Source: Patescibacteria group bacterium (GTDB taxonomy: Bacteria; Patescibacteriota; UBA1384; CAJBMM01). From it: 64,000 nucleotides of DNA. A program made the translations under genes and the position numbers. Positions 6,500 to 62,475 of the stretch are shown in pieces. The DNA lies in contig JBAZWC010000001.1 in NCBI GenBank assembly GCA_041660565.1, forward strand, positions 70,197 through 134,196, in the 5' to 3' direction. Positions within the stretch are counted from its first letter, which is position 1, and each line of letters begins with the position of its first letter. The notes beneath the pieces were generated by a model, which worked only from the letters and a program-made list of their open reading frames with translations, was not told the origin of the DNA and did no database searches.

Positions 6500-6588
6500 T
6501 CCCTCGCTCCCTCCTACGCTAAAGCTTCGGAAGGTCAAGAAAGCTACGGATGGCACGGCCAAAAATTAAAAAAATACAAAGGATATGA

Positions 6589-12214: not shown

Positions 12215-13204
12215 TCAAAACTTATAATTTTTTAGTTCTTTTATACTCATCCGTTTTTCGGTCTGCAAACGGCGAATCTCTCTGGCTCTATCTACAGCCT
12301 TGGTTTGGTACAACTGATAACCCCCAACCGAGGTATTATAAATTGGAATCAACCCTTCTTCGGTCCAAAATCTAATTGTGGCAATGGTTTCATTAGCGGC
12401 GGCGGCAACCTGCCCGATTTTCAATAATTTATTGGAAATTTTGCGTGGGCGTGTTTTCTTTGCTGGCTCGGGCAACTCAGTTGATGCTGTTGATGCGATT
12501 GATGACAAAAACAGATTCAAAGAACGGTCAGTTGCCTCAAAAATCAACTGATAATAATCATCCAATTGGGCATCAGCCTGCGCCACCTCCAAATCGGTGA
12601 CATAGCGGCTTTGATCATCAACCCGAATTACGGCCGGTGGATAACCGTTCTGCAATAAAATTAAATTCATTAACAATCGTGCCGTGCGGCAGTTTGCCTC
12701 TACAAATGGGTGAATGGTAATTAACTTTAAATGTGCATCGGCTGCAATTTGAACCGGATGTTTGGTGTGATTGCCGTTTAGCCACTGCACCATTTCGGCC
12801 ATCGCCACGTTAACTTTTTCATTTGGTTCGTTGCGTACGGTGCCGGTACGATATTGTCCGGCGTGAACGCTATCTACTTTATTCATCAATATGCGATGGA
12901 TATGCAAAATTTCTGCTTGGCTAATGTCTTTAGTTTTAATAGTATTCGCCAAGTGACGTACGTATTCCCAAGCTAGCGCGTGATTGTGGGTTTCAATTAA
13001 ATCTCGAGCCTGTGAGTTTTGCCAGTTTTCCACAACTTCTTTTGCTGCGTCCACAGTGATGTTTTTGCCGGATAGGGCAGTGGAGTTGAATGCCAAATCT
13101 AGTTTATACTGATGATTAAGTTTAGCTAAAACATCAACCGAAATGGGCATCGCAGCCATCAGCTGGCGCTGTTTGGTTTCTAATTGTTCGAGAGTAATTG
13201 ACAT
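12215..13204 (-). CDS. Fic/Doc-family protein with degenerate active-site motif (HPFVEANCRTAR) fused to a C-terminal MerR-type HTH
   Basis: The motif aligns to HPFx(D/E)GN(G/K)RxxR with G->A and G/K->C; C-terminal IGQVAAAANETIATIRFWTEEGLI resembles the MerR HTH. Confidence 0.6.
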   Translation of the reverse strand: MSITLEQLETKQRQLMAAMPISVDVLAKLNHQYKLDLAFNSTALSGKNITVDAAKEVVENWQNSQARDLIETHNHALAWEYVRHLANTIKTKDISQAEILHIHRILMNKVDSVHAGQYRTGTVRNEPNEKVNVAMAEMVQWLNGNHTKHPVQIAADAHLKLITIHPFVEANCRTARLLMNLILLQNGYPPAVIRVDDQSRYVTDLEVAQADAQLDDYYQLIFEATDRSLNLFLSSIASTASTELPEPAKKTRPRKISNKLLKIGQVAAAANETIATIRFWTEEGLIPIYNTSVGGYQLYQTKAVDRAREIRRLQTEKRMSIKELKNYKF

Positions 13205-13219
13205 ACAAACCTCAGCATT

Positions 13220-13324
13220 GTCATTCCGGACTTGATCCGGAATCTATATAAAAGACTGGAAGGGATTTATTCTTAGATTTCTCCAACACAGTCGTGGTGA
13301 CCCACTCCTAGGGTCGAAATGACA
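13220..13324. repeat. Hybrid palindromic repeat (GTCATTCCGG hairpin unit plus AGATTTCTCC...GGGTCGAAATGACA module)
   Basis: Shares both module types. Confidence 0.6.
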
Positions 13325-13430: not shown

Positions 13431-13459
13431 TTGACAAATATAATCTAGTATGTTAATAT
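13431..13459 (+). promoter_or_regulatory. Near-consensus sigma70-type promoter (TTGACA-17 bp-TAATAT)
   Basis: Perfect -35 hexamer, 17-nt spacer, 5/6 match at -10; no ORF in the next ~700 nt, T-run at about 13612-13618. Confidence 0.35.
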
Positions 13460-13973
13460 GTAAGAGTTGCAATCAAGCAAGGCTAAAACCAAGCGCGATA
13501 AGCAGCAGAACCCAAAAACAAAAACGTAAAAATGGCTTGTCTAACATATGTCGGTAGCATATCAAGACGCCCCTTCCTCTATATAGGGATTGGACGTCGG
13601 ATGCGGACAGGTCTTTTTTAAAACAAAGCTTTGTTTTTCTGGCATATGGGATTTATCCCACGCGCTGGAGGGCAGATACCTTTTGAATAAGAGGTGACTG
13701 TTCCAAAGTTAGATCAACCAAGTCTTGGCAAAAATTGTCAAATTACTGGTTCACCTAATCCTTTGGAACAGAACTCTTCTTTCAGCAAAAGTAGGTTGAT
13801 GGCGAAGAGAGCCGTAAATATCAGATCTTGTAGAATTTTTCTTCAAGACGGCGCTCGCCAAAAACTGCTGACAAGTAGACACATGGAGCGGGGACAACAC
13901 CACCTAAAAGTAGATACCCCAGAACCGGCACCTTAACAAATTATCCTTTTCTCTGGTTGACATACATTTTATT

Positions 13974-14061
13974 GTCATTCCGGACTAGATCCGGAATCTA
14001 TGTATAAGAATCCTCGTCTTAGGCTAGGAAAGATTTATTCTTTACTAACCCAAGCCGATGG
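13974..14061. repeat. GTCATTCCGG hairpin unit plus the about 60-nt module GGCTAGGAAAGATTTATTCTTTACTAACCCAAGCCGAYGG
   Basis: The same 60-nt module recurs at 15170-15224. Confidence 0.6.
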
Positions 14062-14215
14062 AGTTTAACTTCGTCTGGCCTACCCCTCCCCGGGGTTAAT
14101 GCCGTCACGGCGTTGGGGAAACGGCATCTGGTGCGTATGGCGTAAGCCGCGCACCAAGTATTCGGTCAGCGTAACCGTAAGGCGAAGTTGACCAGATCCC
14201 TGGGAGGGGAAAAAG

Positions 14216-15037
14216 ATGGAATCCGCTAACGGGCAGATCGTCGACGCGTCTCATGTCGTCGACAATCCAGAGTCGGATCTCGTGACGATCTTGTCGCAGA
14301 ACGGTGGACGGACTATCGAAGTGATAGTGCCCGACGTCTGTGACCACGAGACGGTTTCTGAGCGCCTTTCGAGGCTGCTTGGAAAGCACGTTTCCGACTC
14401 CGACCTTTCCTCCGTTTGGGTTGGAGAGGAAGAGAAGCAATGCGCTTCTCTGATAGTCTCCTCCGACAAGGAGGGAGTACTGCAGGTCGCCCATAAGGAG
14501 GGCAACAAGATGAACCGCAAGCAAGCTTTGGCGCTGATTGGCGCCGCCGTGTCGTTCGGGTACACCGTGGTGGAAACGTTCGCGGACAACCGCGCGCTCC
14601 CCGCGTTCAGTCCTGCAGGCCGCCCGGGTTCCTGGTCGGATGTCGCGGAAGCGTATTACGACCGCTTCTTCGACCTTGATGACCTCTCCCAGTGGGAGTC
14701 GGTCGTCGGGCTGCTCCAGAAATGGTCCCACACGCGTGAGGCCTTCGGGATTCTGATCCCGACCCGGGACGATTTTGTCCTGGAGATCGAGCGCGCTGTT
14801 CGGCAGCGCCCGATCGACGGGGAGATGTACGTTCCCGAGGCTATGCCGCTTGCCGAGGCGGTCTGTAAGATGATCATGCTCGGCGCCACCACGGAGGAAA
14901 TCCTCGGCTGGGTCGAGGAGATCAACCTCCACACTGACGGCCAGGCACCGATCCTGTTCGACGCAATCGAGCAGGCGAACGAGCCTCGGTCGGAGCGGGG
15001 TGGCCGCGGCCGCGAGGCGGCCGAGGCCAGCAACTAG
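14216..15037 (+). CDS. Hypothetical protein, cassette 1 of high-GC island
   Basis: 273-aa ORF, about 60% GC, strong RBS GGGAGGGG 7 nt upstream; the opposite-strand ORF 14105..15130 is judged a GC shadow. Confidence 0.5.
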   Translation: MESANGQIVDASHVVDNPESDLVTILSQNGGRTIEVIVPDVCDHETVSERLSRLLGKHVSDSDLSSVWVGEEEKQCASLIVSSDKEGVLQVAHKEGNKMNRKQALALIGAAVSFGYTVVETFADNRALPAFSPAGRPGSWSDVAEAYYDRFFDLDDLSQWESVVGLLQKWSHTREAFGILIPTRDDFVLEIERAVRQRPIDGEMYVPEAMPLAEAVCKMIMLGATTEEILGWVEEINLHTDGQAPILFDAIEQANEPRSERGGRGREAAEASN

Positions 15038-15044
15038 TTCCACG

Positions 15045-15116
15045 GAGGGGTGGGTGCAACCGCACCCGCCTCTCCTCATTCCAAAGTTTCCAAAAGGTTG
15101 GGGACTTTGTAGATGA
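15045..15116 (+). promoter_or_regulatory. Conserved inter-cassette element, copy 1: GC hairpin (terminator-like) plus 45-nt box CTCCTCATTCCAAAGTTTCCAAAAGGTTGGGGACTTTGTAGATGA
   Basis: Hairpin GGGTGGGTGC-AAC-CGCACCCGCC; 28-nt palindrome CAAAGT..ACTTTG at 15082-15109; repeated 4 times in the island. Confidence 0.6.
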
Positions 15117-15125
15117 TTTCCTCTT

Positions 15126-15224
15126 GTCATTCCCGCGAAGGCGGGAATCCAGTCTATGAAAAACTTTCGATAATCCTTGGTTTAGGCTAGGAAAGATTTA
15201 TTCTTTACTAACCCAAGCCGACGG
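15126..15224. repeat. GTCATTCC(CG..CG)GGAATC hairpin plus 60-nt GGCTAGGAAAGATTTATTC module
   Basis: Low-GC host-type repeat inserted between cassettes 1 and 2. Confidence 0.6.
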
Positions 15225-15287
15225 ATGGCTTGATGTCCGAGTCTATAAGTCCTGACCCAAATGGGCAGGCAGGGCAAGGAGATTTCA

Positions 15288-15758
15288 ATGGAATTCGACG
15301 CTTCGTACAAACGGGCAAAGCGGCTGCTCGGTCAGAACTTCAGGGCGATGTGTCGTGAGGCTCACGCCCTGGCAGCGATGGGTTTGCCCATCGCGGTCTA
15401 CCAAGACCATGTCGTTCTGCTCCCAACGTATGGGACGACGAACGATTTCTTCTATCTCATGGCCGAGGGGATAGAGCATTGGTACGTCCGGTTCTGGTGC
15501 TGCAACGCCGAACCGGAGTTCGGCCAGACCGACTACCATGAGTCCCAGCAGATTGGCTCAGGCAGTCTGGAGTTGGTTGCCCGATGGTTCCGCGAGCAGT
15601 TAGAAGCTCGTGGCTGCCAGGCCGCCCAGCTGGAGAAGTTGGCCGCTGTTATGGCGGCTATCCTGCCGGAGGCGGCTTCCGTCGCGGCTCCGACAGACTT
15701 GGAGCCACCGAGGTTCACCCTCGGTGATCAGCTCCGAGAGATGGAGACCGGCAAGTAG
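15288..15758 (+). CDS. Hypothetical protein, cassette 2
   Basis: 156 aa from ATG at 15288 with RBS AAGGAG 7 nt upstream (the ORF track extends to 15261). Confidence 0.5.
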   Translation: MEFDASYKRAKRLLGQNFRAMCREAHALAAMGLPIAVYQDHVVLLPTYGTTNDFFYLMAEGIEHWYVRFWCCNAEPEFGQTDYHESQQIGSGSLELVARWFREQLEARGCQAAQLEKLAAVMAAILPEAASVAAPTDLEPPRFTLGDQLREMETGK

Positions 15759-15765
15759 CTCACAC

Positions 15766-15839
15766 GGAGGGGTGGGTGCGCAAGCGCCCACTCCTCTTCA
15801 TTCCAAAGTTTCCAATACGTTGGGGACTTTGTAGATGAA
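15766..15839 (+). promoter_or_regulatory. Conserved inter-cassette element, copy 2 (hairpin plus 45-nt box)
   Basis: ggaggggtgggtgcgcaagcgcccactcctc followed by ttcattccaaagtttccaatacgttggggactttgtagatga. Confidence 0.6.
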
Positions 15840-15843
15840 GAAA

Positions 15844-15955
15844 TGACTCCCCGTAGGGGATGGTATACACTTCGGGTGGGTCGCGACGACTCGCACCTAC
15901 CCACGACCCGCCTGACTAGGGGTGAAACTCTGGCAGGCAACAGGGGAGAACGGAA
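15844..15955 (+). ncRNA. Conserved about 110-nt leader type A, copy 1 (candidate cis-regulatory 5' UTR)
   Basis: More than 90% identical to 16791-16899 although the downstream ORFs are unrelated; contains CCCCGTAGGGG and GGGTGGGTCGCGACGACTCGCACCTACCCACGACCC stem potentials; ends in RBS GGGGAGA. Confidence 0.4.
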
Positions 15956-16618
15956 ATGGCTACAGGAAATATGTCATGGCTTGGCTTGGAAGTTGAGCCG
16001 ACCGTCGACGCAAAGTACCGCGTCGATTGGCAGCAATATGGTGGCCCGCGCGGCGGCCAGATGGTCGTCCGCTATGCCACTCGCGAGTGGCTGGAGATGG
16101 CGGTCAACTTCCGGGTTGCACCGTACACCGGAGAGCACTTCATCTCCGACTCCTGCTTCGAGAGCAGCCGGGAGGAGGAGTACATGGTGGCCGCCGCTCG
16201 CCGAACGGCAATGCGGCACGGCATGCTCCCTGACGTGCCAGGCCCGCAGGTCGGATATTGTGTCCGCCTGCAGCACTACCTGGGCCAGTGGTCGGCGGAG
16301 AACTTCCCGGCGACCACGAACGTGCCAGACGGGCATGTGGCGTCTCGGGGCACCGATCAGATGCCCATCTTCGGAATCGTCGATGGGTGGGCGGATGACA
16401 CAATATCCGGCCCTCCCACCCTTCGGGTGATCGTGAAGCGTGAAGCGCTCAGAATCATTGAGCGCGAGGTCAGGGCAGCCGCCAGTGCGGATGCCAGGGT
16501 TGCCCGTACCGGCTTCCTCACGGCGGAGGACGTGGACATGTCCACGGGCACGTATTCGCGTGTCTACGAGGCAATGATTCGGGTTTACCGTGGACATGTC
16601 GTAGCCTCAAACCAGTAG
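15956..16618 (+). CDS. Hypothetical protein, cassette 3
   Basis: 220 aa, about 62% GC; overlapping minus-strand ORFs judged GC shadows. Confidence 0.5.
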   Translation: MATGNMSWLGLEVEPTVDAKYRVDWQQYGGPRGGQMVVRYATREWLEMAVNFRVAPYTGEHFISDSCFESSREEEYMVAAARRTAMRHGMLPDVPGPQVGYCVRLQHYLGQWSAENFPATTNVPDGHVASRGTDQMPIFGIVDGWADDTISGPPTLRVIVKREALRIIEREVRAAASADARVARTGFLTAEDVDMSTGTYSRVYEAMIRVYRGHVVASNQ

Positions 16619-16716
16619 ACATACGCAATAGAAGTTTTTGGATCGTTCTTCGGCAAAAACGATCTGGCATCCCGATGCGCATAATCGGGAGGTTCGCGAT
16701 CCAAATCGCATTCGTT

Positions 16717-16788
16717 GAGAGGCGGGTGCAACCGCACCCGCCTCTCCTCATTCCAAAGTTTCCAAAAGGTTGGAGACTTTGTAGATGA
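16717..16788 (+). promoter_or_regulatory. Conserved inter-cassette element, copy 3 (perfect 13-bp hairpin GAGAGGCGGGTGC-AAC-GCACCCGCCTCTC plus 45-nt box)
   Basis: Read directly. Confidence 0.6.
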
Positions 16789-16790
16789 AT

Positions 16791-16899
16791 CGACTCCCCG
16801 TAGGGGATGGCAATACGCTTCGGGTGGGTCGCGACGACTCGCACCTACCCACGACCCGCCTGACTAGGGGTGAAACTCTGGCAGGCATAAGGGGAGACG
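16791..16899 (+). ncRNA. Conserved leader type A, copy 2
   Basis: See 15844-15955. Confidence 0.4.
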
Positions 16900-17475
16900 A
16901 TGAGTACGACAACAAGTGGAACCAGCCCTGGGCGACGCACCTTCTACTACGGGCGGTCTGGTGGCTTGCACGCCACCGGCGAGGCAGCAACGCGGCTGCT
17001 GGAGATCATCAGGCAGCCGCCGTACGATCTCCTCCCGTTCCTTGGAGGAGAGGATATTAGTCTTCCAGAAGGTACGGGTCTCGCAGATGTCGCGAAGTGC
17101 GAGGCGTTTTTCACGCCATGGGTCAAGGTCTGGGCGCCGCGTCGAATCGTTCGTTACCTGTTGTCGCTGGTGCCAGAGGCGACTTACCACTGGTGTCCGT
17201 GGGAGGGAAAGATTCCTGCGGGATGGCTGACCATCCCGAACTACGACAGCCAGGTTCCTCAGTCCTTCCTGGACTGGGTCGCGGAAACCGGAGGAGTTTT
17301 TGACGAGCCCTCCGGCGGAGCGGTCTGGCTCAAGTGGCCGAACATGCGGCAGGTACATGTCCAGTTCGAGAAGGGGGATTTCCCGGAGGATCTGATTATC
17401 TCCGGAAACGGCCGTAGGTGGTATCTGGAGCGGTATGCCAACGGCCTGGAGATCCTCAACATCCGCGAAGTCTAG
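16900..17475 (+). CDS. Hypothetical protein, cassette 4
   Basis: 191 aa; RBS AGGGGAGA. Confidence 0.5.
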   Translation: MSTTTSGTSPGRRTFYYGRSGGLHATGEAATRLLEIIRQPPYDLLPFLGGEDISLPEGTGLADVAKCEAFFTPWVKVWAPRRIVRYLLSLVPEATYHWCPWEGKIPAGWLTIPNYDSQVPQSFLDWVAETGGVFDEPSGGAVWLKWPNMRQVHVQFEKGDFPEDLIISGNGRRWYLERYANGLEILNIREV

Positions 17476-17481
17476 TCTACT

Positions 17482-17556
17482 GGAGGGTAGGGCGCTGTTC
17501 GCGCCCGCCCTCCTCATTCCAAAGTTTCCAAAAGGTTTGGGGACTTTGTAGATGAA
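17482..17556 (+). promoter_or_regulatory. Conserved inter-cassette element, copy 4
   Basis: GGAGGGTAGGGCGC-TGTTC-GCGCCCGCCCTCC hairpin plus 45-nt box. Confidence 0.6.
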
Positions 17557-17761
17557 TTTAGACAGGTTGGTCGGTTCGTATGTGCATCATATTTTATGAA
17601 TCATATACGAGCTGGTTACCCTGCCAACTTGGCCCTCCTCGGGCTTATGCCGTTCAGGCGTAAGGGAAAAAGATGCGTATGGCGCATAGCCGCGCATCTG
17701 CTTTGTAGGCCATCTAAGCCGTAAGGCAAAGTTGACCGAACCCCTGGGAGGGGGAATAGAA

Positions 17762-18892
17762 ATGGCAACAATCGCCTTTCGCAAGAAGGGTGAGACGGCT
17801 GAGCTGCCGCTCACGGGAATCGTGGATCCGTCCACGGTGACAGTATGTGACACCGCGCCGAGTGGTGCGCCTGTTGCAAAACGGGACCGACTTCAGTATA
17901 AGTTGGTTCCCGTGCCGGAGGGGACGTTGCGCCTTCGGATCCCAGTCGTACAGATCCGGTCGTCGCAGCTGTACGACGGCTGGATGACAGCCCGGGAATT
18001 TTGGGATAACCACCCAGACTTCCGGGGCGCTATCCTTAATGTGGATAGCGGGTTAAGGGCGTTCAGTGTGATCAACACGCTGTTTGCCCGGTTCGAAGAC
18101 GTTTGGCCCGGGCACCCCGTCCCGGCCGATATTCTTGCCGCGAGGCAGGAGATCGCCGAGGAAAAGCGGCTGGCGGCCGCTGAGGAAGTGGCCCGCCAGG
18201 AAAGTCAAAGGTCGTGGGACGCTATGTTGCAGAAAACCCACGACCTGATTGCCCTGGTGATGGGCGATATACCAGAAATCGTTCGTCATCAGAACGAATA
18301 CTGGAGTTTCTCGGTGAGTTCAATGGAGAGGTCGGTTTCTCTCCATACCCTTATACAGGGTGTGCGCTTCTACTTTGTCGCTAAGCATAATGACGTGCAG
18401 GTGGCGGCAAGGAGGGTGCTTGCCCTCCGCGATGAGTGGCGCACCAGTCCTCCCGGGGGCTTCGTCTTTTCTCCTGATACCCAGACGTACTGGGATTTGA
18501 AGGAGGAGAGCTGGAGTGGGGGGTGGCGGCTGGACGAGTGGTGCCGTGTGGCCAAGTGGCTGCGCGAGCAACACGAGGCCGCCGAGAAGGCGGCAACCGC
18601 GGAAGAAGCGGAGGAGCGCCAGTGGCTCTTCCAGTTACGCGGGATCATGATCCCTCCCCTGTACGGGGAGCAGCTGGTGGCTGTCCCAATGGTGGATAGC
18701 CGCGCTTGTTCGCCCAACGAGGCTAACTGGTGGGGGCTTTACACCCCCGACGGCAAGCCATACCTGATCCGTCGCGGGATCCACGTCCGGTACAGCTCTC
18801 TTGAGGGGCTGATCCGGAACCACTATCGGGACGAGCGGGGGATCATGGAGGAAGCGCTTTTATTGCTTTCTTCATTGATCCACTCGCTGTAG
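17762..18892 (+). CDS. Hypothetical protein, cassette 5
   Basis: 376 aa from ATG 17762 (RBS GGGAGGGGG). Its about 130-nt leader (type B) is about 80% similar to the leader of cassette 1 (14090-14215). Confidence 0.5.
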   Translation: MATIAFRKKGETAELPLTGIVDPSTVTVCDTAPSGAPVAKRDRLQYKLVPVPEGTLRLRIPVVQIRSSQLYDGWMTAREFWDNHPDFRGAILNVDSGLRAFSVINTLFARFEDVWPGHPVPADILAARQEIAEEKRLAAAEEVARQESQRSWDAMLQKTHDLIALVMGDIPEIVRHQNEYWSFSVSSMERSVSLHTLIQGVRFYFVAKHNDVQVAARRVLALRDEWRTSPPGGFVFSPDTQTYWDLKEESWSGGWRLDEWCRVAKWLREQHEAAEKAATAEEAEERQWLFQLRGIMIPPLYGEQLVAVPMVDSRACSPNEANWWGLYTPDGKPYLIRRGIHVRYSSLEGLIRNHYRDERGIMEEALLLLSSLIHSL

Positions 18893-19185
18893 CCCAAAGC
18901 GTTTTGGTAGTTTTTCGCATAATGAAACTAGCCACTGGGGTGGGGAAGAAAATAAATCTTCCTCACCCAACTGTCCCCCGCAAGAAACGGGGCTGATGAG
19001 TCGTTGAAAATTACGACGAAACAGATAAGGAAATTAAATCAGCTTGAGCGTAAAAAACCAAGCATGCTCACCGACGGATTATAGCCGTTTTGGCACCGCA
19101 AGATTATATAATCGTTTTAGCAATAAGACGGTTGTTACTACCGAATCTTGCGGGACCAAAGCGGCTTTTTGAGTACCAAAATTCT

Positions 19186-19400
19186 AAATCCGAAGCACTA
19201 AATCCGAAGCACTAAATTCGAAACAAATTCGAAATTGAAAATTCAAAATCGTAAAACGGGCGGACATCCCCCTTCGCCACCTCCTACGCTACCTCCTACG
19301 CTAAAGCTTCGGAAGGTCAAGAAAGCTACGGAAGGTCAAGAAGGCTACGGAGGACAAGTATGAGTCCGCCCCTACGGTGCTCGTCAGGCTGACCGTAAGG
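19186..19400. repeat. Microsatellite-like (AAATYCGAAGCACTAAAT) plus GGGCGGACATCCCCC..CCTACGCTAAAGCTTCGGAAGGTCAAGAA..GTCCGCCCC module repeat
   Basis: Module near-identical to 60530-60640 and partly to 6499-6560. Confidence 0.6.
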
Positions 19401-20911: not shown

Positions 20912-21118
20912 GTTGTATGATGGGAGGGGGAACATCACGATTTGTTATCGCAAAAGAATTGTAGATCACGCTTTAGCGTGTTAGAGAACCAATTTGAAAG
21001 CAAGCTAAAGCTTGGTCTACGGTCGTTCACGGAAAACAATAGGGGATGTGCTGGGCACGGGCGGGTCTCCAAAACCTGCCTCGAAGCGTCCGATTCGCTT
21101 ATCCCCTGCCAAATAAAT

Positions 21119-21879: not shown

Positions 21880-22012
21880 TGTCATTTCGACTCCTCGAGC
21901 ATTGTCTCGAGGGTGGAGAAATCTCAAAAAGAATTTGAAGGGACTTTTTCTTAGATTTCTCCAACGTGGTCGCTCGAGCCGGCTCCCCGGGTCGAAATGA
22001 CACTATGATGAC
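21880..22012. repeat. Complete about 130-bp palindromic element with 12-bp perfect TIRs TGTCATTTCGAC / GTCGAAATGACA and internal GGAGAAATCT..AGATTTCTCC repeat
   Basis: Read directly; near-identical element at 62354-62475; the right TIR abuts the transketolase start. Confidence 0.7.
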
Positions 22013-30898: not shown

Positions 30899-31100
30899 CG
30901 CCAAATTATAAATTTTAATAAGTTCGAATAAACGTAGACCACGCTTTAGCGTGTTTGGAAAACAGACTGACCTCCTACGCCAAGGCTACGGATGGTCAAG
31001 AAGTCTGGACTACGATCTTTAGAATTTACTTTGTTGTTACTTGCGCAATCATTAAGTATTGTCATATAATTAATAGTAGGAAATAGAGGGGCCAAACAGT

Positions 31101-37071: not shown

Positions 37072-37141
37072 TGTCATTTCGACCCGGGGAGCTGGTTTGA
37101 GCGACCACGTTGGAGAAATCTAAGAATAAATCCCTTCCAAG
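37072..37141. repeat. Half-element repeat (same sequence as the pilB in-frame insert)
   Basis: ttgtcatttcgacccggggagctggtttgagcgaccacgttggagaaatctaagaataaatcccttcc. Confidence 0.65.
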
Positions 37142-43585: not shown

Positions 43586-43658
43586 TAGGCCTCCTGGTCC
43601 GTAGGGGAGGACTCATACCTGTCCTCCCGAAATCTGACCTCAAAGAAAGAATAACAAG

Positions 43659-44975: not shown

Positions 44976-45318
44976 AGCGTCTGTCACGCAAACTATTGAC
45001 AAAGTTTAAAAAATAGTATAGAGTGTTGGTGTATGAGTAACACATATTACCAATATGGTCTAAAAACGGCAGATGCTTTCTAGCGCATTCTCTTGATGAG
45101 TTTGCGATTTTTTGCATCGCCCTTTATTCTATATATAGATATGATGTTAGAACCTTAATAACATTTCAAGAACTCCTCTAGTTAGTGCCGCCAAACAAGC
45201 TGGCGCACCGTATCTGGCTAAACCCGGATGTGGTTCGACATACTTGGCACACTCGCCGGCTTAAAAGGCTGGCACTATCTATCGCCACACGTAGGTGCGG
45301 CGAGGAGGAGACAGTAAG

Positions 45319-47091
45319 ATGAAGCGAAATCTAATTCTGCTTCTCGCCGCTATGATCGTCATCGCGACGGTCGGATGTGGTGGAGGCGGTGGGGGTTCTA
45401 ACCCCCCGGCCAAAGAGACTCGGTCGGCCAACGTGGCCACCGCGACCTTTGGTTCGCAGTATCTCAAGACGCACAATCTGTTGGTGCAGTGGGTCGGCGA
45501 CAAAACCGGCACTAACTACGGCACCTGCAAGATCGAGAGCGTCAACAAGACATCGGGTACCGGCACGCTGTCGGTCAACCCCGATGGGAGCATCAGCTTG
45601 ATCAACGATCTTCCGGCTGATGTCTTCAACTTCACGTTCGTGACGCATCATCCCCCAATCGAATCCGGAGATCCGCAATACGACCAGCTACTGACGGGCA
45701 CGGCAACGATCACCATCGTCCCCGAGTCCACATCAACCAACCCCACCAACTTCAACATCCCACAAGGCGGGCAAATGACGCTGGTGGCGCGGGCGCAAAA
45801 CGCCCGAGCTACGGGAGCTGAAGTTGTCCGCGTTACTGCGGCTGACACGTCCCGCGTTCCGGTGAACGTTGAGGCCACATGGGTGATCAACCCGCCGAAT
45901 GCGGGTAACATCGTCAAGAACACCGGCGAGACAACGTACACCTTCACAGGCGCCGCGGCTTTCACTGGCACGTTCACGCTAACGGCACATATCGCTAACG
46001 CGATGGACCAGCCGGCAGCAGTCAACGGCAACGCCATTGCCCACCCGACCATTGGGGTTTCCAATCCTACGGAAGGGCAGACTGTCAGCGGCACGGTTAC
46101 CGTGCAGTTTGCCGCCCAGAACGCCACAAGCGTGTACTGGAAGGTAGACTCTGGTACCGAGATGTTGGCATCAAGCAATTCGTTCCCGCTTGACACGACT
46201 ACTCTATCCAACGCCAACCACACCCTGAATTTTAGGGCAGTGGGGCAGTTGGAGACCGTAACGCTGTCTCGCGCGTTTACGGTTAACAACCAAGTGCCGT
46301 ATGACCCGGGGAAGGCCGGCAAGCTGACCTTCACCGGTGGTACGTACAATACCAACTCGGATAACTCCGGCAAGATGGTTAGTACGTTCTACATGTTCAA
46401 GACTGGCGGGGCGGTGGCCGTTGATAAGGCGGATACCATCCGCTTCTTCAACGCCGCGGGCACGGTGGTGAACACCGTGCAGACCGCCGACTATGGCTAC
46501 CCGGTGGCCGTTACCTCTGGTGATGTTGTCTGGGCTGTGCGCCGGAACTTTGGGCAAGTTCGGCTACTCAACAAGACCGGAGCAGTTGTCAACACTCTGA
46601 CGGTTGCGGGGGCTAATGACGCTGCTTACGTGGCCCAAACCGGTAAGGTGCTGGTTAGCGGCAACAACGGTATTCGCGAGTACGACCCGAACACCCTGGC
46701 GTACACCCAGCTACGCACCGACCGTGCCACTGCCGTAACTGGCGACGATCGGTACGTATTCTATCAGGGTACAGGCGACGGATCCGATCCGACTATGCTG
46801 ACAATCTGGAAGTTGGATCGGACAACCGGGTCAATCGTTGCCATCGCCAAACCGGGCATCCTGTTCAGTCTGTATAGCCCGCCCGGATTCAACTGCGTCG
46901 TGGGCACCGACGGCACGTCCAAGACCGTGAAGGTCTGGGACAAGTCGGGAGGCCTGTTGTCCTCAACCCCGCTCCCGAACGGGGAGCAGGTTGTGGGCAT
47001 CGGCGTTGACATGAGCGGAGATGGTAGCGGGCTGTTCATTACGCCTGACATCTCGCTCTTCCAGTATCGGGCACAGATTGTGCCCAACTAG
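45319..47091 (+). CDS. High-GC surface lipoprotein with Ig-like/beta-propeller-like domains
   Basis: Lipobox IATVGC followed by GGGGGG linker; about 58% GC; RBS GAGGAGGAG; start at 45319 (the ORF track extends to 45295). Confidence 0.5.
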   Translation: MKRNLILLLAAMIVIATVGCGGGGGGSNPPAKETRSANVATATFGSQYLKTHNLLVQWVGDKTGTNYGTCKIESVNKTSGTGTLSVNPDGSISLINDLPADVFNFTFVTHHPPIESGDPQYDQLLTGTATITIVPESTSTNPTNFNIPQGGQMTLVARAQNARATGAEVVRVTAADTSRVPVNVEATWVINPPNAGNIVKNTGETTYTFTGAAAFTGTFTLTAHIANAMDQPAAVNGNAIAHPTIGVSNPTEGQTVSGTVTVQFAAQNATSVYWKVDSGTEMLASSNSFPLDTTTLSNANHTLNFRAVGQLETVTLSRAFTVNNQVPYDPGKAGKLTFTGGTYNTNSDNSGKMVSTFYMFKTGGAVAVDKADTIRFFNAAGTVVNTVQTADYGYPVAVTSGDVVWAVRRNFGQVRLLNKTGAVVNTLTVAGANDAAYVAQTGKVLVSGNNGIREYDPNTLAYTQLRTDRATAVTGDDRYVFYQGTGDGSDPTMLTIWKLDRTTGSIVAIAKPGILFSLYSPPGFNCVVGTDGTSKTVKVWDKSGGLLSSTPLPNGEQVVGIGVDMSGDGSGLFITPDISLFQYRAQIVPN

Positions 47092-60454: not shown

Positions 60455-60650
60455 CTCATTCTTTAATTTCTCCCTCCTTCGCTCATCCTAGATTCGGAAC
60501 GGCACAGCGGGCGGAACGCTGAGCGTCCCATTGCCCCGCTCAGCGGGGCGGACATCCCCCTTCGCCACCTCCTACGCTAAAGCTTCGGAAGGTCAAGAAG
60601 GCTACGGAGGACAAGCATGGGTCCGCCCCTACTTAGGTCGTGAAAGTTAT
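60455..60650. repeat. Mosaic repeat (GGAACGCTGAGCGTCCC; CCCCGCTCAGCGGGG; GGGCGGACATCCCCC..CTACGCTAAAGCTTCGGAAGGTCAAGAAGGCTACGG..GGTCCGCCCC)
   Basis: Related to 40705-40913 and 19260-19400. Confidence 0.65.
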
Positions 60651-62353: not shown

Positions 62354-62475
62354 GTCATCTCGACTCCTCGAGCTTTGTCTCGAGGGTGGAGAGATCTCAA
62401 GAAAGACTGGAAAAGATTCTTTCTCAGATTTCTCCAACGCAGTCGATTTGACAATCTCCTCGGGTCGAAATGACA
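62354..62475. repeat. Complete about 120-bp palindromic element (TGTCATCTCGAC..GTCGAAATGACA)
   Basis: About 85% identical to 21880-22012. Confidence 0.7.

Follow-up and report, generated by a model that had tools for sequence, protein, structure and literature searches.

The analyzed window, a 64-kb (64,000-nt) stretch of a Patescibacteria genome, contains a 5-kb island of five plus-strand genes at about 14.06–18.9 kb. With 57–61% GC against ~43% for the genome, this island looks foreign in its Patescibacteria setting. Codon-position values (GC3 0.71–0.78 and GC2 0.41–0.48, compared to a host GC3 of 0.38–0.47) identify the ORFs as real genes of a foreign type. GC content changes sharply at the island, which is flanked by housekeeping genes (DNA polymerase III delta′, BipA, transketolase and tRNAs). 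No phage genes were found near the island, with a PHROG search of the ORFs giving no match, and no integrase occurred among the scanned ORFs nearby. The island genes, with orphan status assigned from protein searches, are as follows.

14216–15037, + strand: ORF1, 273 aa, orphan (NCBI tag WC773_00445)
15261–15758, + strand: ORF2, 165 aa, although a start at the ATG at 15288 (AAGGAG SD), giving 156 aa, is more likely; no family match
15956–16618, + strand: ORF3, 220 aa, orphan, behind leader A copy 1
16900–17475, + strand: ORF4, 191 aa, orphan, behind leader A copy 2
17762–18892, + strand: ORF5, 376 aa, orphan (WC773_00465)

Homologs of ORF1, ORF3, ORF4 and ORF5 were absent from collections of 5.8–15 billion proteins. 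ORF1, ORF4 and ORF5 retrieved only themselves from 5.8 billion clusters, and ORF3 retrieved from 1.84 billion representatives itself and one match regarded as spurious (28 residues, repeated eight times in a 4092-aa repeat protein). ORF2 had no match in viral contigs. None of the five proteins matched a family in Pfam, PHROGs, PADLOC or NCBIfam, and a PDB sequence search was also negative. Structure predictions reached pLDDT values of 33 for ORF3 and 53 for ORF4, and Foldseek comparison of both models to the PDB returned nothing at E ≤ 0.001.

A consensus scan revealed no sigma70-like promoter on the plus strand of the island, where the strongest candidate (TTTCCA-17-TAGATG) does not satisfy the −10 criteria, and neither an intrinsic terminator nor a transcription start could be assigned there. 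A sigma70-like promoter is present upstream at 13431–13459; it is not an obvious driver of the island, given the terminator-like hairpin followed by U6 at about 13534–13619.

Intergenic modules and two near-identical leaders

Four of the five island genes are preceded by a 72-nt module of two hairpins, hairpin 1 and the 42-nt hairpin 2. In front of ORF3 and ORF4, the module is followed by a sequence that we term leader A.

15045–15116, + strand: module copy between ORF1 and ORF2
15766–15838, + strand: module in front of leader A copy 1, with GC-rich hairpin 1 (GCAA loop) and hairpin 2, UCAUUC-CAAAGUUUCCAA-loop-UUGGGGACUUUG-UA-GAUGA (z = −5.22)
16717–16788, + strand: module in front of leader A copy 2, with hairpin 1 nearest to the copy at 15045 (88%, versus 66% to the copy at 15766)
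17483–17555, + strand: module copy between ORF4 and ORF5
15845–15955, + strand: leader A copy 1, 5′ UTR of ORF3, from GACUCCCC to the base preceding the ATG (−51.9 kcal/mol, z = −4.73)
16792–16899, + strand: leader A copy 2, 5′ UTR of ORF4 (−57.9 kcal/mol, z = −5.49)

Two near-identical leaders of ~110 nt ahead of unrelated ORFs had been proposed in a first-pass annotation, and they are real. Global alignment from GACTCCCC to the SD gave 103 identical positions in 109 (94.5%), with four substitutions and two one-base indels, and both copies carry the motifs named at the time: CCCCGTAGGGG, the nested self-complementary segment and the GGGGTGAAACTCTGGCAGGCA block. This last 21-mer occurs exactly twice in the 64 kb, against an expectation of 0.01. 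A repeat search recovered an 85-nt pair (15865–15949 and 16813–16897, 96% identity) and a 27-nt pair (15837–15863 and 16784–16810, 89% identity), and a covariance model built from the leader A pair found only these two sites in the window (146.5 and 142.5 bits; next match, 11 bits).

Similarity falls to ~52%, the background of the aligner, in the first 120 nt of the ORF3 and ORF4 coding sequences and in the 65 nt upstream of the module. Conservation of the non-coding DNA thus exceeds that of the flanking coding DNA, as the annotation had claimed, and the downstream proteins do differ (BLASTP E = 0.59 over 13 residues). Because the duplication stops short of the coding sequence, a segmental duplication extending into the genes, raised at the outset as the explanation that would undo a functional reading, does not describe the locus. 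The leader/gene junction falls in the spacer between SD and ATG, which measures 7 nt for ORF3 and 3 nt for ORF4. The extent originally given holds for the two leader copies but was too small for the repeat as a whole, since the upstream 72-nt module has four copies. Leader A is non-coding, because a 1-nt indel between the copies shifts the sole upstream reading frame; a leader peptide is unlikely for the same reason, with upstream ATG frames differing between the copies.

Within the module, hairpin 2 forms an imperfect duplex of 17 bp that contains an internal loop and is almost invariant and nearly palindromic, while hairpin 1 is GC-rich, variable in sequence and devoid of a U-tract. Between the upstream regions of ORF3 and ORF4, identity amounts to 66% for hairpin 1, 89% for hairpin 2 and 94.5% for leader A. 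Hairpin 1 of the ORF4 region instead matches the copy that precedes ORF2 (BLAST identity of 98.5% across 65 nt). Because its hairpin 1 matches the ORF2 copy and its leader the ORF3 copy, the ORF4 upstream region reads as a mosaic that combines parts of two other cassettes, an ORF2-type hairpin 1 and an ORF3-type leader. In view of this mosaic arrangement, the best explanation for the near-identity of the leader A copies is that a regulatory cassette has spread across the island by recombination. With only two copies that are 94.5% identical, the conservation could also reflect a recent conversion event, which could suffice without functional constraint.

Integron attC sites carry the core sites R″/R′, RYYYAAC ... 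GTTRRRY, at the cassette 3′ end. As attC candidates, the modules were rejected: hairpin 2 contains GTTGGGG or GTTGGAG, lacking the final Y, and has no RYYYAAC partner.

The leader-B pair mentioned in the annotation was located as well, together with a third leader type, C. The three types are joined to the module in mosaic fashion, and the array ends in a further structured region.

14009–14062 and 15172–15225, + strand: repeat pair of element (leader type) C
14075–14215, + strand: leader B copy 1 (ORF1), with anti-SD CCCCUCCC predicted to pair with SD GGGAGGGG
15117–15287, + strand: ORF2 leader, with an ATTCCC-N8-GGGAAT palindrome and element C; its 5′ UCCUCUUG is predicted to pair with SD CAAGGAG
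17632–17761, + strand: leader B copy 2 (ORF5), with a long AT-rich hairpin (17563–17631) just ahead
18938–19027, + strand: array end, with a GGGGUGGGGAAGA.../...UCUUCCUCACCC hairpin and, behind it, a type III hammerhead candidate (18968–19027)

The hammerhead candidate aligns to the full-length model with GUC, CUGAUGA and CGAAAC in place and with helices I, II and III of 5, 5 and about 4 bp. Its score of 41.8 bits lies below the Rfam gathering threshold of 48.5 bits (E = 8.4e-07 in a 5.2-kb search and 1e-05 in a 64-kb search), and we regard it as a near-threshold candidate for a type III hammerhead ribozyme closing the island. It occupies the site at which other intergenic regions carry hairpin 2 and a leader, a position that suggests a role in 3′-end formation.

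Predicted leader fold and masking of the SD

Folding of both leader A copies, as the annotation had advised, yielded a strongly structured, strand-specific predicted RNA that ends in the RBS, with z-scores of −1.75 and −3.01 on the minus strand for copies 1 and 2 against the values near −4.7 and −5.5 on the plus strand. In both copies, the predicted fold is a multi-helix junction, with the closing helix P1 (CUCCCC/GGGGAG) enclosing P1a, P2 and P3.

15847–15852, + strand: anti-SD CUCCCC of copy 1, 5′ strand of P1; alternative local hairpin UCCCC-GUA-GGGGA
15874–15902, + strand: P2 hairpin of copy 1, GGGUGGGU-C-GCGA/CGAC/UCGC-ACCUACCC; identical in both copies, one G·U pair
15910–15938, + strand: P3 hairpin of copy 1, GCCUG-A-CUAGGG/GUGAAA/CUCUGG-CAGGC; identical in both copies, two G·U pairs
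15943–15948, + strand: SD GGGGAG of ORF3, 3′ strand of P1, 7 nt ahead of the ATG; SD-core P(unpaired) 0.15
16794–16799, + strand: anti-SD CUCCCC of copy 2, with P1 extended by AUCG/CGAU into the AUG
16822–16850, + strand: P2 hairpin of copy 2 (predicted fold)
16858–16886, + strand: P3 hairpin of copy 2 (predicted fold)
16891–16896, + strand: SD GGGGAG of ORF4; P(unpaired) 0.004

In the predicted ensemble of copy 1, P1 accounts for 65% and the competing 5′ hairpin UCCCC-GUA-GGGGA for 28%; these pairings are mutually exclusive and nearly isoenergetic, and the SD is mostly paired in both conformers. For copy 2, the masked form with P1 reaches 99%.

The six differences between the copies break none of the 37 predicted pairs, in a structure predicted from the very sequences being compared. 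Two of the six form one covarying pair at columns 26/32, where U-A is replaced by C-G, a compensatory change of the kind that the annotation had advised looking for, and the other four fall in loops, the 3′ junction or the SD–ATG spacer. In leader B, about a quarter of the aligned columns differ between copies, yet 37 of 37 pairs are kept; the changes comprise three compensatory and seven one-sided ones, some within the anti-SD/SD helix. Shuffle controls for covariation (262/500 for A and 70/500 for B) are uninformative with two sequences. Four pairs in leader A and three in hairpin 2 are G·U pairs that exist only on the plus strand, and all stem imperfections are G·U on this strand, none being A·C.

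All five leaders show a predicted long-range anti-SD/SD closing helix. P(unpaired) of the SD core ranged from 0.00 to 0.15 for the five island genes, compared to 0.31–0.51 for shuffled leaders and a median of 0.47 for 21 host genes (below 0.15 in two), and opening the RBS would cost 7–17 kcal/mol in the island versus a host median of 6.2. Taken alone, masking of the ORF3 SD is not significant (18% of shuffles as low; opening cost 7.1 kcal/mol, near the host median). A further point against the masking reading is that GC-rich leaders with G-rich SDs readily meet C-rich partners. Since leaders A, B and C differ in sequence but share the same predicted anti-SD/SD architecture, and since the genes concerned are unrelated ORFans, the B and C leaders argue for a generic RBS-masking leader over a ligand-specific sensor.

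The proposal of a functional RNA, riboswitch-like or attenuator, therefore fared unevenly: a structured leader that ends in an RBS and is conserved beyond its flanks is what we observe, and the riboswitch and attenuator versions found neither an Rfam match nor a U-tract terminator. No terminator-like site was detected on the plus strand in 15839–15955 or 16786–16899, and no U-run follows P2 or P3, which argues against a transcription attenuator. An RNA thermometer of the ROSE or fourU type was likewise rejected, as no melting was predicted in silico between 10 and 45 °C; over this range, P(unpaired) of the SD went from 0.30 to 0.08 in copy 1 and stayed at about 0.00 in copy 2.

Searches for relatives

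The Rfam search that the annotation had recommended (Rfam 15, gathering mode, whole window) identified only tRNAs, and leader A had no match at E ≤ 10 in a search of 13900–19100. Blastn comparison of 13900–19100 to phage and plasmid records was negative, as were exact scans of IMG/VR for hairpin 2 and for P3 and P2 of leader A. In GTDB representative genomes, the exact hairpin-2 17-mer produced 109 single matches, about the number expected by chance and none reaching the adjoining TTGG. The extended module motif had two matches in JGI metagenomes, both within unrelated coding sequences. Overall, no further copies or relatives of leader A were found in the collections searched, comprising IMG/VR, phage records and plasmids for leader A itself and GTDB and JGI for the adjoining module motif. 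Because no relative appeared in these public data, we can only infer the function of leader A.

Comparison with known systems

In placing conserved imperfect hairpins between all cistrons of a co-directional array, the island resembles the early region of phage T7, with its RNase III processing hairpins, and enterobacterial REP/BIME elements. These structures are strand-specific and probably stabilize the upstream 3′ end and create or condition the downstream 5′ end. This likeness would concern leader A less than the module's hairpins 1 and 2. With translational riboswitches, for example of the purine class, leader A shares a predicted multi-helix junction, an SD in the closing or adjacent helix and possible alternative pairings, but it differs in having no Rfam riboswitch match, cross-species aptamer, coherent gene association or ligand.

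PeSL (promoter-early stem-loop) cassettes of T4-type phages are repeated between ORFan genes and shuffled by recombination (Arbiol et al. 2010, PMC2839356). They resemble the island in their GGGG...CCCC-type stem-loop, their repetition between ORFan genes of a plastic region, the shuffling between copies and crossovers between the SD and upstream elements. In similar fashion, the island carries four module copies between consecutive genes, its leaders end in an SD, and the intergenic space is filled from the stop codon to the SD/ATG. Unlike PeSL cassettes, the island is part of a Patescibacteria MAG chromosome and has no phage genes around it, its motif contains no detectable sigma70-type promoter, and each unit combines two hairpins with a 110–150-nt leader predicted to mask the SD; the sequences show no similarity. 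Mini-circles and recombination are PeSL traits, whereas recombination in the island is deduced from the sequence mosaic.

In the maturation (A-protein) gene leader of MS2 and other leviviruses, a long-distance interaction between an upstream complementary sequence (UCS) and the SD closes a cloverleaf and keeps ribosomes from binding at equilibrium, and a metastable hairpin briefly leaves room for translation (Groeneveld 1995; van Meerten 2001; reviewed in PMC4615214). Leader A is predicted to share the long-distance closure, with a 5′ complementary sequence pairing with the SD across about 90–100 nt around a cloverleaf of hairpins. Its local hairpin UCCCC-GUA-GGGGA is a candidate counterpart of the metastable hairpin and might transiently free the SD. 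Whereas the MS2 leader is part of an RNA genome and functions in connection with the replicase, leader A stands in a DNA genome ahead of several unrelated genes. The two show no sequence homology, and the island encodes no levivirus protein domains.

Interpretation and alternatives

Our preferred reading, to which we assign a probability of roughly 50%, is that leader A is the RBS-masking 5′-UTR module of a recombining intergenic cassette that separates five orphan genes. Such a cassette would occupy the interval between one gene's stop codon and the start codon of the following gene and would consist of a variable GC-rich hairpin, the near-invariant 17-bp hairpin and leader A, B or C with a strong terminal SD. 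The two A copies would have arisen by recombination or conversion between cassettes within the island rather than by gene duplication. We infer that the leader is transcribed and acts in cis in the sense transcript, as a compact junction of P2, P3 and a small hairpin. Because the closing helix CUCCCC/GGGGAG pairs the 5′ anti-SD with the SD, the RBS would be masked at equilibrium, and translation would be either low or limited to a window before this helix forms. By competing for the anti-SD, the local 5′ hairpin UCCCC-GUA-GGGGA could open such a kinetic window.

That the repeats serve purely as DNA is unlikely. The leader would then be a homology linker, or promoter/operator DNA, for cassette exchange, with the A copies representing a recent gene-conversion tract and the fold being a by-product of GC-rich palindromic DNA. 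The mosaic arrangement of modules is consistent with this, as are the position of the leader/gene junctions between SD and ATG (7- and 3-nt spacers), which resembles PeSL crossovers, the small sample of two copies with 5.5% divergence and the near-palindromic hairpin 2, which could bind a dimeric protein. It accounts poorly for stem imperfections that are exclusively G·U on the plus strand and never A·C, for the strand difference in fold z-scores, for the compensatory changes (one in the A pair and three in the B pair) and for the recurrence of anti-SD/SD closure in three unrelated leader sequences. Roles in recombination and as RNA are not mutually exclusive and can coexist. We consider it scarcely credible that the island is a chimeric misassembly with repeats created by assembly errors, despite its sharp GC jump and the singleton status of all tested island proteins. 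Contigs in the Logan assembly of run SRR18595301 are identical to the window over the stretches compared, being independently assembled but possibly from the same reads as the MAG. They span ORF1 and, including the hammerhead candidate, the stretch from ORF4 and ORF5 to the AT-rich flank, and end exactly at repeats; contig L110, which also contains the array end, terminates inside leader A copy 2. In addition, copies of the palindromes and of element C are present both at the island border and in its interior.

Other proposals assign leader A a more specialized RNA function. As a riboswitch or regulatory-protein site, it would use a ligand at the junction to select between the SD-masked and the 5′-hairpin form. 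We judge this highly unlikely: the junction with its SD-containing closing helix, the two nearly isoenergetic and exclusive pairings of the copy 1 anti-SD (65% and 28%) and the invariance of the helices and most junction bases would suit a sensor, but no Rfam family matches at E ≤ 10, the collections searched hold no homologs that might reveal a conserved aptamer, and ORF3 and ORF4, as unrelated ORFans, share no pathway link. Moreover, copy 2 is predicted to be 99% masked, the copy 1 SD is mostly paired in both conformers, and the B and C leaders reach the same closure with other sequences. There is only a very slim chance that leader A is an RNA-processing element, either a self-cleaving ribozyme of a new kind or a target of RNase III or RNase E, through which a polycistron would be divided into monocistronic mRNAs alongside the hammerhead. 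In favor of processing, the hammerhead candidate closes the array in place of hairpin 2 and a leader, read-through is likely at hairpin 1 because it lacks a U-tract, and hairpin 2, with its imperfect 17-bp stem and internal loop, resembles phage T7 RNase III sites. Hairpin 2 is, however, a more plausible processing site than leader A, which by inspection is a simple nested junction without HDV-like or twister pseudoknots. Candidate ribozymes in leader A were rejected, an HDV-like double pseudoknot for its misfitting topology and the hammerhead or any other known ribozyme for want of a model match to leader A. Also decidedly unlikely is the most far-reaching scenario, in which the island would be a self-contained expression array of some mobile or phage origin, run by RNA structure in place of conventional promoters and terminators, with the invariant hairpin 2 as a processing or recognition site between all genes, leaders A, B and C as gated translational switches, leader A as a new class of riboswitch, kinetic switch or ribozyme, and the hammerhead cutting the 3′ end.

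If the preferred reading of an RBS-masking cassette is wrong, the leader pair would be no more than the trace of a recent conversion within an island specific to the strain, of little general significance. If it is correct, the island would represent natural plug-and-play regulatory cassettes outside phages, with orphan genes traveling together with their own hairpins and an RBS-masking leader. The three short, unrelated leaders that share a predicted long-range anti-SD design are directly testable candidate translational switches. For the ultra-small Patescibacteria, such cassettes would provide a concrete mechanism to acquire, shuffle and throttle foreign genes.

Organization of the GC-rich island

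Leader A, a ~110-nt repeat, lies within an island of 5 kb (about 14063–18900) situated just upstream of a tRNA Thr-Tyr-Thr cluster. GC content at 14001–19000 is 57–61% in a surrounding genome of ~40–46%. The island contains five co-directional ORFs (ORF1–ORF5) of 273, 165 (probably 156), 220, 191 and 376 aa, also found in the NCBI annotation of the Patescibacteria-group MAG (WC773_00445 to WC773_00465), where their contig measures 516 kb. Their GC3 (0.71–0.78; host genes, 0.38–0.47) and GC2 (0.41–0.48) are those of ordinary coding sequence in a GC-rich genome. Neither an integrase nor a phage gene was found near the island. Directly to its left, 12215–13204 (−) encodes one protein that joins a Fic/DOC domain to a MerR-type HTH at its C terminus. 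A second GC-rich patch (53–59%, 45–47 kb) coincides with a 598-aa ORF (45295–47091, +) with only a weak Big_7 match; no island modules occur there.

The intergenic regions are composed of the following elements.

15045, 15767, 16717 and 17483: 72-nt module, four copies between consecutive genes
15845–15955 and 16792–16899: leader A, before ORF3 and ORF4, 3′ of the module
14075–14215 and 17632–17761: leader B, before ORF1 and ORF5
Before ORF2: palindrome plus element C, with a second element C copy upstream of the leader B of ORF1

Each module consists of hairpin 1 followed by hairpin 2. Hairpin 1 is GC-rich (13–14 bp), lacks a subsequent U-tract and varies in sequence among copies while retaining its pairing, including two compensatory pairs. 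Hairpin 2 (42 nt, UCAUUC-CAAAGUUUCCAA-loop-UUGGGGACUUUG-UA-GAUGA; fold z-score −5.2) forms 17 bp with an internal loop; its copies are 89–96% identical, with changes restricted to the loop and one U·G to U-A replacement. The module was rejected as an attC site. Between the last module and the leader B of ORF5, an AT-rich, near-perfect long hairpin (17563–17631, +; z = −5.3) looks like a small palindromic insertion. GGGTGGG occurs near the 5′-arm start of five noncoding island hairpins (15048, 15770, 15874, 16822 and 18938, +), namely two hairpin 1 copies, helix P2 of both A leaders and the terminal hairpin, which hints at a common origin or a recognition feature.

At the right island edge, 76 nt after the ORF5 stop, we detected a candidate ribozyme.

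18968–19027 (+): type III hammerhead ribozyme candidate

Its core is complete (cleavage triplet GUC, CUGAUGA and CGAAAC); helices I and II have 5 bp each, and helix III is short. At 41.8 bits (E = 8.4e-07 in a 5.2-kb search) it falls below the gathering threshold of 48.5, and a 12-bp hairpin (GGGGUGGGGAAGA/UCUUCCUCACCC, 18938–18968) precedes it. Further right lie a long inverted repeat (19078–19174, +; 23-nt arms, 87% complementary), probably just a stable hairpin with a spurious, sub-threshold mir-228 precursor match (32.3 bits; gathering 45), and tandem repeats before tRNA-Thr (19184–19225 and 19303–19340; 14-nt CTAAATCCGAAGCA three times and 19-nt AAAGCTWCGGAAGGTCAAG twice). ARAGORN alone called a 71-nt tRNA-Trp(CCA) at 21041–21111 (+), with its anticodon at position 29 and an encoded 3′ CCA; the Rfam tRNA model did not report it, and its D-arm may be atypical.

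Mosaic intergenic repeats are abundant across the whole genome. A REP-like palindrome, (G)TCATTCCGG-N7-CCGGAAT(GAC), occurs seven times between host genes against 0.07 expected; a variant, ATTCCCGCGAAGGCGGGAAT (15129–15148), sits upstream of ORF2 within the island and matches the Neisseria dRS3 consensus ATTCCC-N8-GGGAAT in form. Repeats with ..GCTTCGGAAGGTCAAG.. units are 93–100% identical between distant loci.

7678, 7727, 12130, 12180, 13223, 13977 and 38416: REP-like 21-nt sites, one at the island's left border
19258–19377, 60546–60632, 6505–6550, 1714–1746, 43599–43627 and 30970–31002: ..GCTTCGGAAGGTCAAG.. repeats
13251–13324, 62402–62475, 37109–37139 and 21937–21965: second host intergenic repeat family

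Leader A is a noncoding repeat with mosaic surroundings

The first-pass annotation had described two near-identical leaders before different proteins, and both statements hold: the copies are present as described, far beyond chance, and ORF3 (15956–16618) and ORF4 (16900–17475) encode unrelated proteins. A repeat search of the window returned an 85-nt pair (15865–15949/16813–16897, 96% identity) and a second, 27-nt pair (15837–15863/16784–16810, 89%). Aligned from GACTCCCC to the Shine–Dalgarno (SD) sequence, the copies are identical at 103 of 109 positions; four substitutions and two 1-nt indels separate them. In 64 kb, the 21-mer GGGGTGAAACTCTGGCAGGCA has exactly two occurrences (0.01 expected), and a covariance model built from the pair matched only these two copies in the window. 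Noncoding sequence is indeed better conserved than its coding flanks, since the first 120 nt of the two genes, like the 65 nt in front of the repeated block, reach ~52% identity, the background of the aligner used for unrelated sequence. Coding sequence thus lies outside the duplicated stretch, and no segmental duplication reaching into it was seen. A conserved upstream reading frame was rejected, as upstream ATG frames differ between copies. For ORF4, annotations place the start at 16900 (191 aa; NCBI, Logan) or 16966 (169 aa; JGI); 16900 is favored by the SD conserved in leader A.

Comparison of the upstream regions of ORF4 and ORF3 gave 94.5% identity for the leader and only 66% for hairpin 1, while hairpin 1 of the ORF4 region is 88% identical to that of the ORF2 region (98.5% over 65 nt by BLAST). 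The leader/gene boundary falls between SD and ATG, with spacers of 7 nt (ORF3) and 3 nt (ORF4). This pattern is typical of modules exchanged by recombination at shared sequence, not of a simple segmental duplication. The closest architectural analogue is the PeSL cassette of T4-type phages, a conserved stop-to-start intergenic motif with a GGGG...CCCC stem-loop, promoter and SD that flanks ORFans and mediates modular shuffling (PMC2839356). The island cassette shares the composite intergenic motif, the stem-loop and the ORFan/mosaic setting but has neither a detectable sigma70 promoter nor the T4-type phage context; we therefore describe it as PeSL-like in working, not as a family member.

Predicted folds sequester the ribosome binding site

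On the + strand, both copies of leader A fold into the same predicted junction (−51.9 and −57.9 kcal/mol; z −4.73 and −5.49), and none of 200 shuffles was as stable.

15847–15852 with 15943–15948, and 16794–16799 with 16891–16896 (+): predicted P1, CUCCCC paired with SD GGGGAG
Leader A, small hairpin (+): predicted P1a
15874–15902 and 16822–16850 (+): predicted P2
15910–15938 and 16858–16886 (+): predicted P3

Because of four G·U pairs, the fold is strand-specific (− strand, z −1.75 and −3.01). The six differences between copies break none of 37 predicted pairs: two substitutions form one compensatory pair in P1a (U-A to C-G), and the others are a loop insertion, two 3′-junction bases and the SD–ATG spacer. 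About two thirds of positions are paired, so such a helix-sparing distribution is unlikely by chance, by a rough estimate at the few-per-cent level for a fold predicted from the same two sequences. A covariation shuffle control for the pair (262/500) is uninformative with two rows. By constrained folding, P1 makes up ~65% of the copy 1 ensemble and a competing local hairpin, UCCCC-GUA-GGGGA, ~28%; the latter corresponds to the self-complementary segment CCCCGTAGGGG noticed in the first-pass annotation and leaves the SD partly paired with CCC of the P2/P3 junction. The P1 of copy 2 is lengthened by AUCG/CGAU into the AUG and accounts for 99%. No melting was predicted between 10 and 45 °C.

In minimum free energy (MFE) structures, all five leaders pair a 5′ C-rich tract long-range with the SD, in the remaining three as follows.

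ORF1 leader: closing helix CCCCUCCC/GGGAGGGG
ORF2 leader: closing helix UCCUCUUG/CAAGGAG
ORF5 leader: closing helix CCCUCCU/GGGAGGG

The B leaders, which differ at about one quarter of aligned columns (best 53-nt block, 79% identical), retain all 37 predicted pairs. Changes at paired positions are compensatory in three cases and one-sided in seven, and three of those seven fall within the anti-SD/SD helix; here too, covariation comes from two sequences. SD-core P(unpaired) is 0.00–0.15 in the island versus 0.31–0.51 in shuffled leaders; gene by gene, shuffles no higher than the observed value make up a fraction of 0.00, 0.20, 0.18, 0.03 and 0.04. The 21 host genes whose SD could be recognised have a median of 0.47, and just 2 of them fall below 0.15. 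Opening −15 to +12 costs 7.1–16.6 kcal/mol in the island (host median 6.2, maximum 17.0). SD masking is thus a consistent predicted trend in the island, weak for ORF3 alone.

Searches for families, promoters and homologs

At gathering thresholds, tRNAs were the only Rfam 15 matches, and even at E ≤ 10 neither leader A copy was matched; membership in any Rfam family was rejected. Leader A has no hairpin plus U-run resembling a terminator, and no sigma70-like promoter was found on the + strand within the island. The only good + strand promoter nearby (13431–13459, TTGACA-17-TAATAT with TG) has a hairpin plus U6 downstream at ~13534–13619. The sigma70-like promoters at 13431–13619 are divergent, the − strand one facing the Fic gene, and this region, without an Rfam match, may be a short unannotated transcript.

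Phage and plasmid records yielded no DNA matches. In scans with the module alone, the hairpin 2 17-mer gave chance-level single matches across 185,579 species genomes, none with the adjoining motif, and the module motif gave two matches in JGI metagenomes, both within unrelated genes; IMG/VR scans with hairpin 2 and two leader A segments returned nothing. ORF1, ORF3, ORF4 and ORF5 had no homolog among the 5.8 to 15 billion proteins of the collections searched, ORF2 being less thoroughly searched, and family libraries were negative for all five proteins. Single-sequence structure models were too poor for use. The only other occurrence of the island is in Logan contigs of run SRR18595301, which match the window over the stretches read and are interrupted exactly where the repeats lie. 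One of these independently assembled contigs begins inside leader A copy 2 and spans ORF4, ORF5 and the hammerhead candidate into the AT-rich flank.

Proposed function and alternatives

These data, from one genome and in silico folding, show leader A to be a noncoding, helix-sparing repeat with a predicted strand-specific fold. It makes up the final section of a modular intergenic cassette, which appears to recombine within an orphan-gene island. In our favored reading, with a probability of about 0.5, the cassette would be transcribed together with the genes; hairpin 1 would shield the 3′ end of the upstream message, and hairpin 2 may be a recognition or processing site or else overlap a noncanonical promoter. 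The CUCCCC/GGGGAG helix would mask the ribosome binding site, giving low translation of foreign genes. Alternatively, translation might occur only before P1 forms, with the local 5′ hairpin holding the anti-SD. The closest functional analogue is the UCS–SD long-distance interaction in the MS2 maturation-gene leader, where a local hairpin forms and translation takes place in the interval before the long-distance helix (PMC4615214).

The main rival, which we consider unlikely, gives the block a role only at the DNA level, either as homology used in cassette exchange or as a promoter/operator, with identity from recent conversion; the mosaic pattern fits such exchange, and the strand-specific, helix-sparing fold speaks for an RNA. 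As to the functional RNA first proposed, a structured cis-acting element is plausible from the + strand folds, while a riboswitch or attenuator is not supported, with no Rfam match and no terminator; a ligand- or protein-sensing switch seems improbable. That leader A is a processing element or ribozyme is a very doubtful reading; Rfam found no match there. That the island or its repeats are an artefact is hardly credible: the Logan contigs agree with the window and argue against chimeric assembly, although their reads may be those behind the MAG.

The island is odd in combining five genes without detectable homologs or family matches (the search being less thorough for ORF2), an RNA module in each gap between genes and a hammerhead candidate at its end. 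The design of its leaders is coherent and testable.
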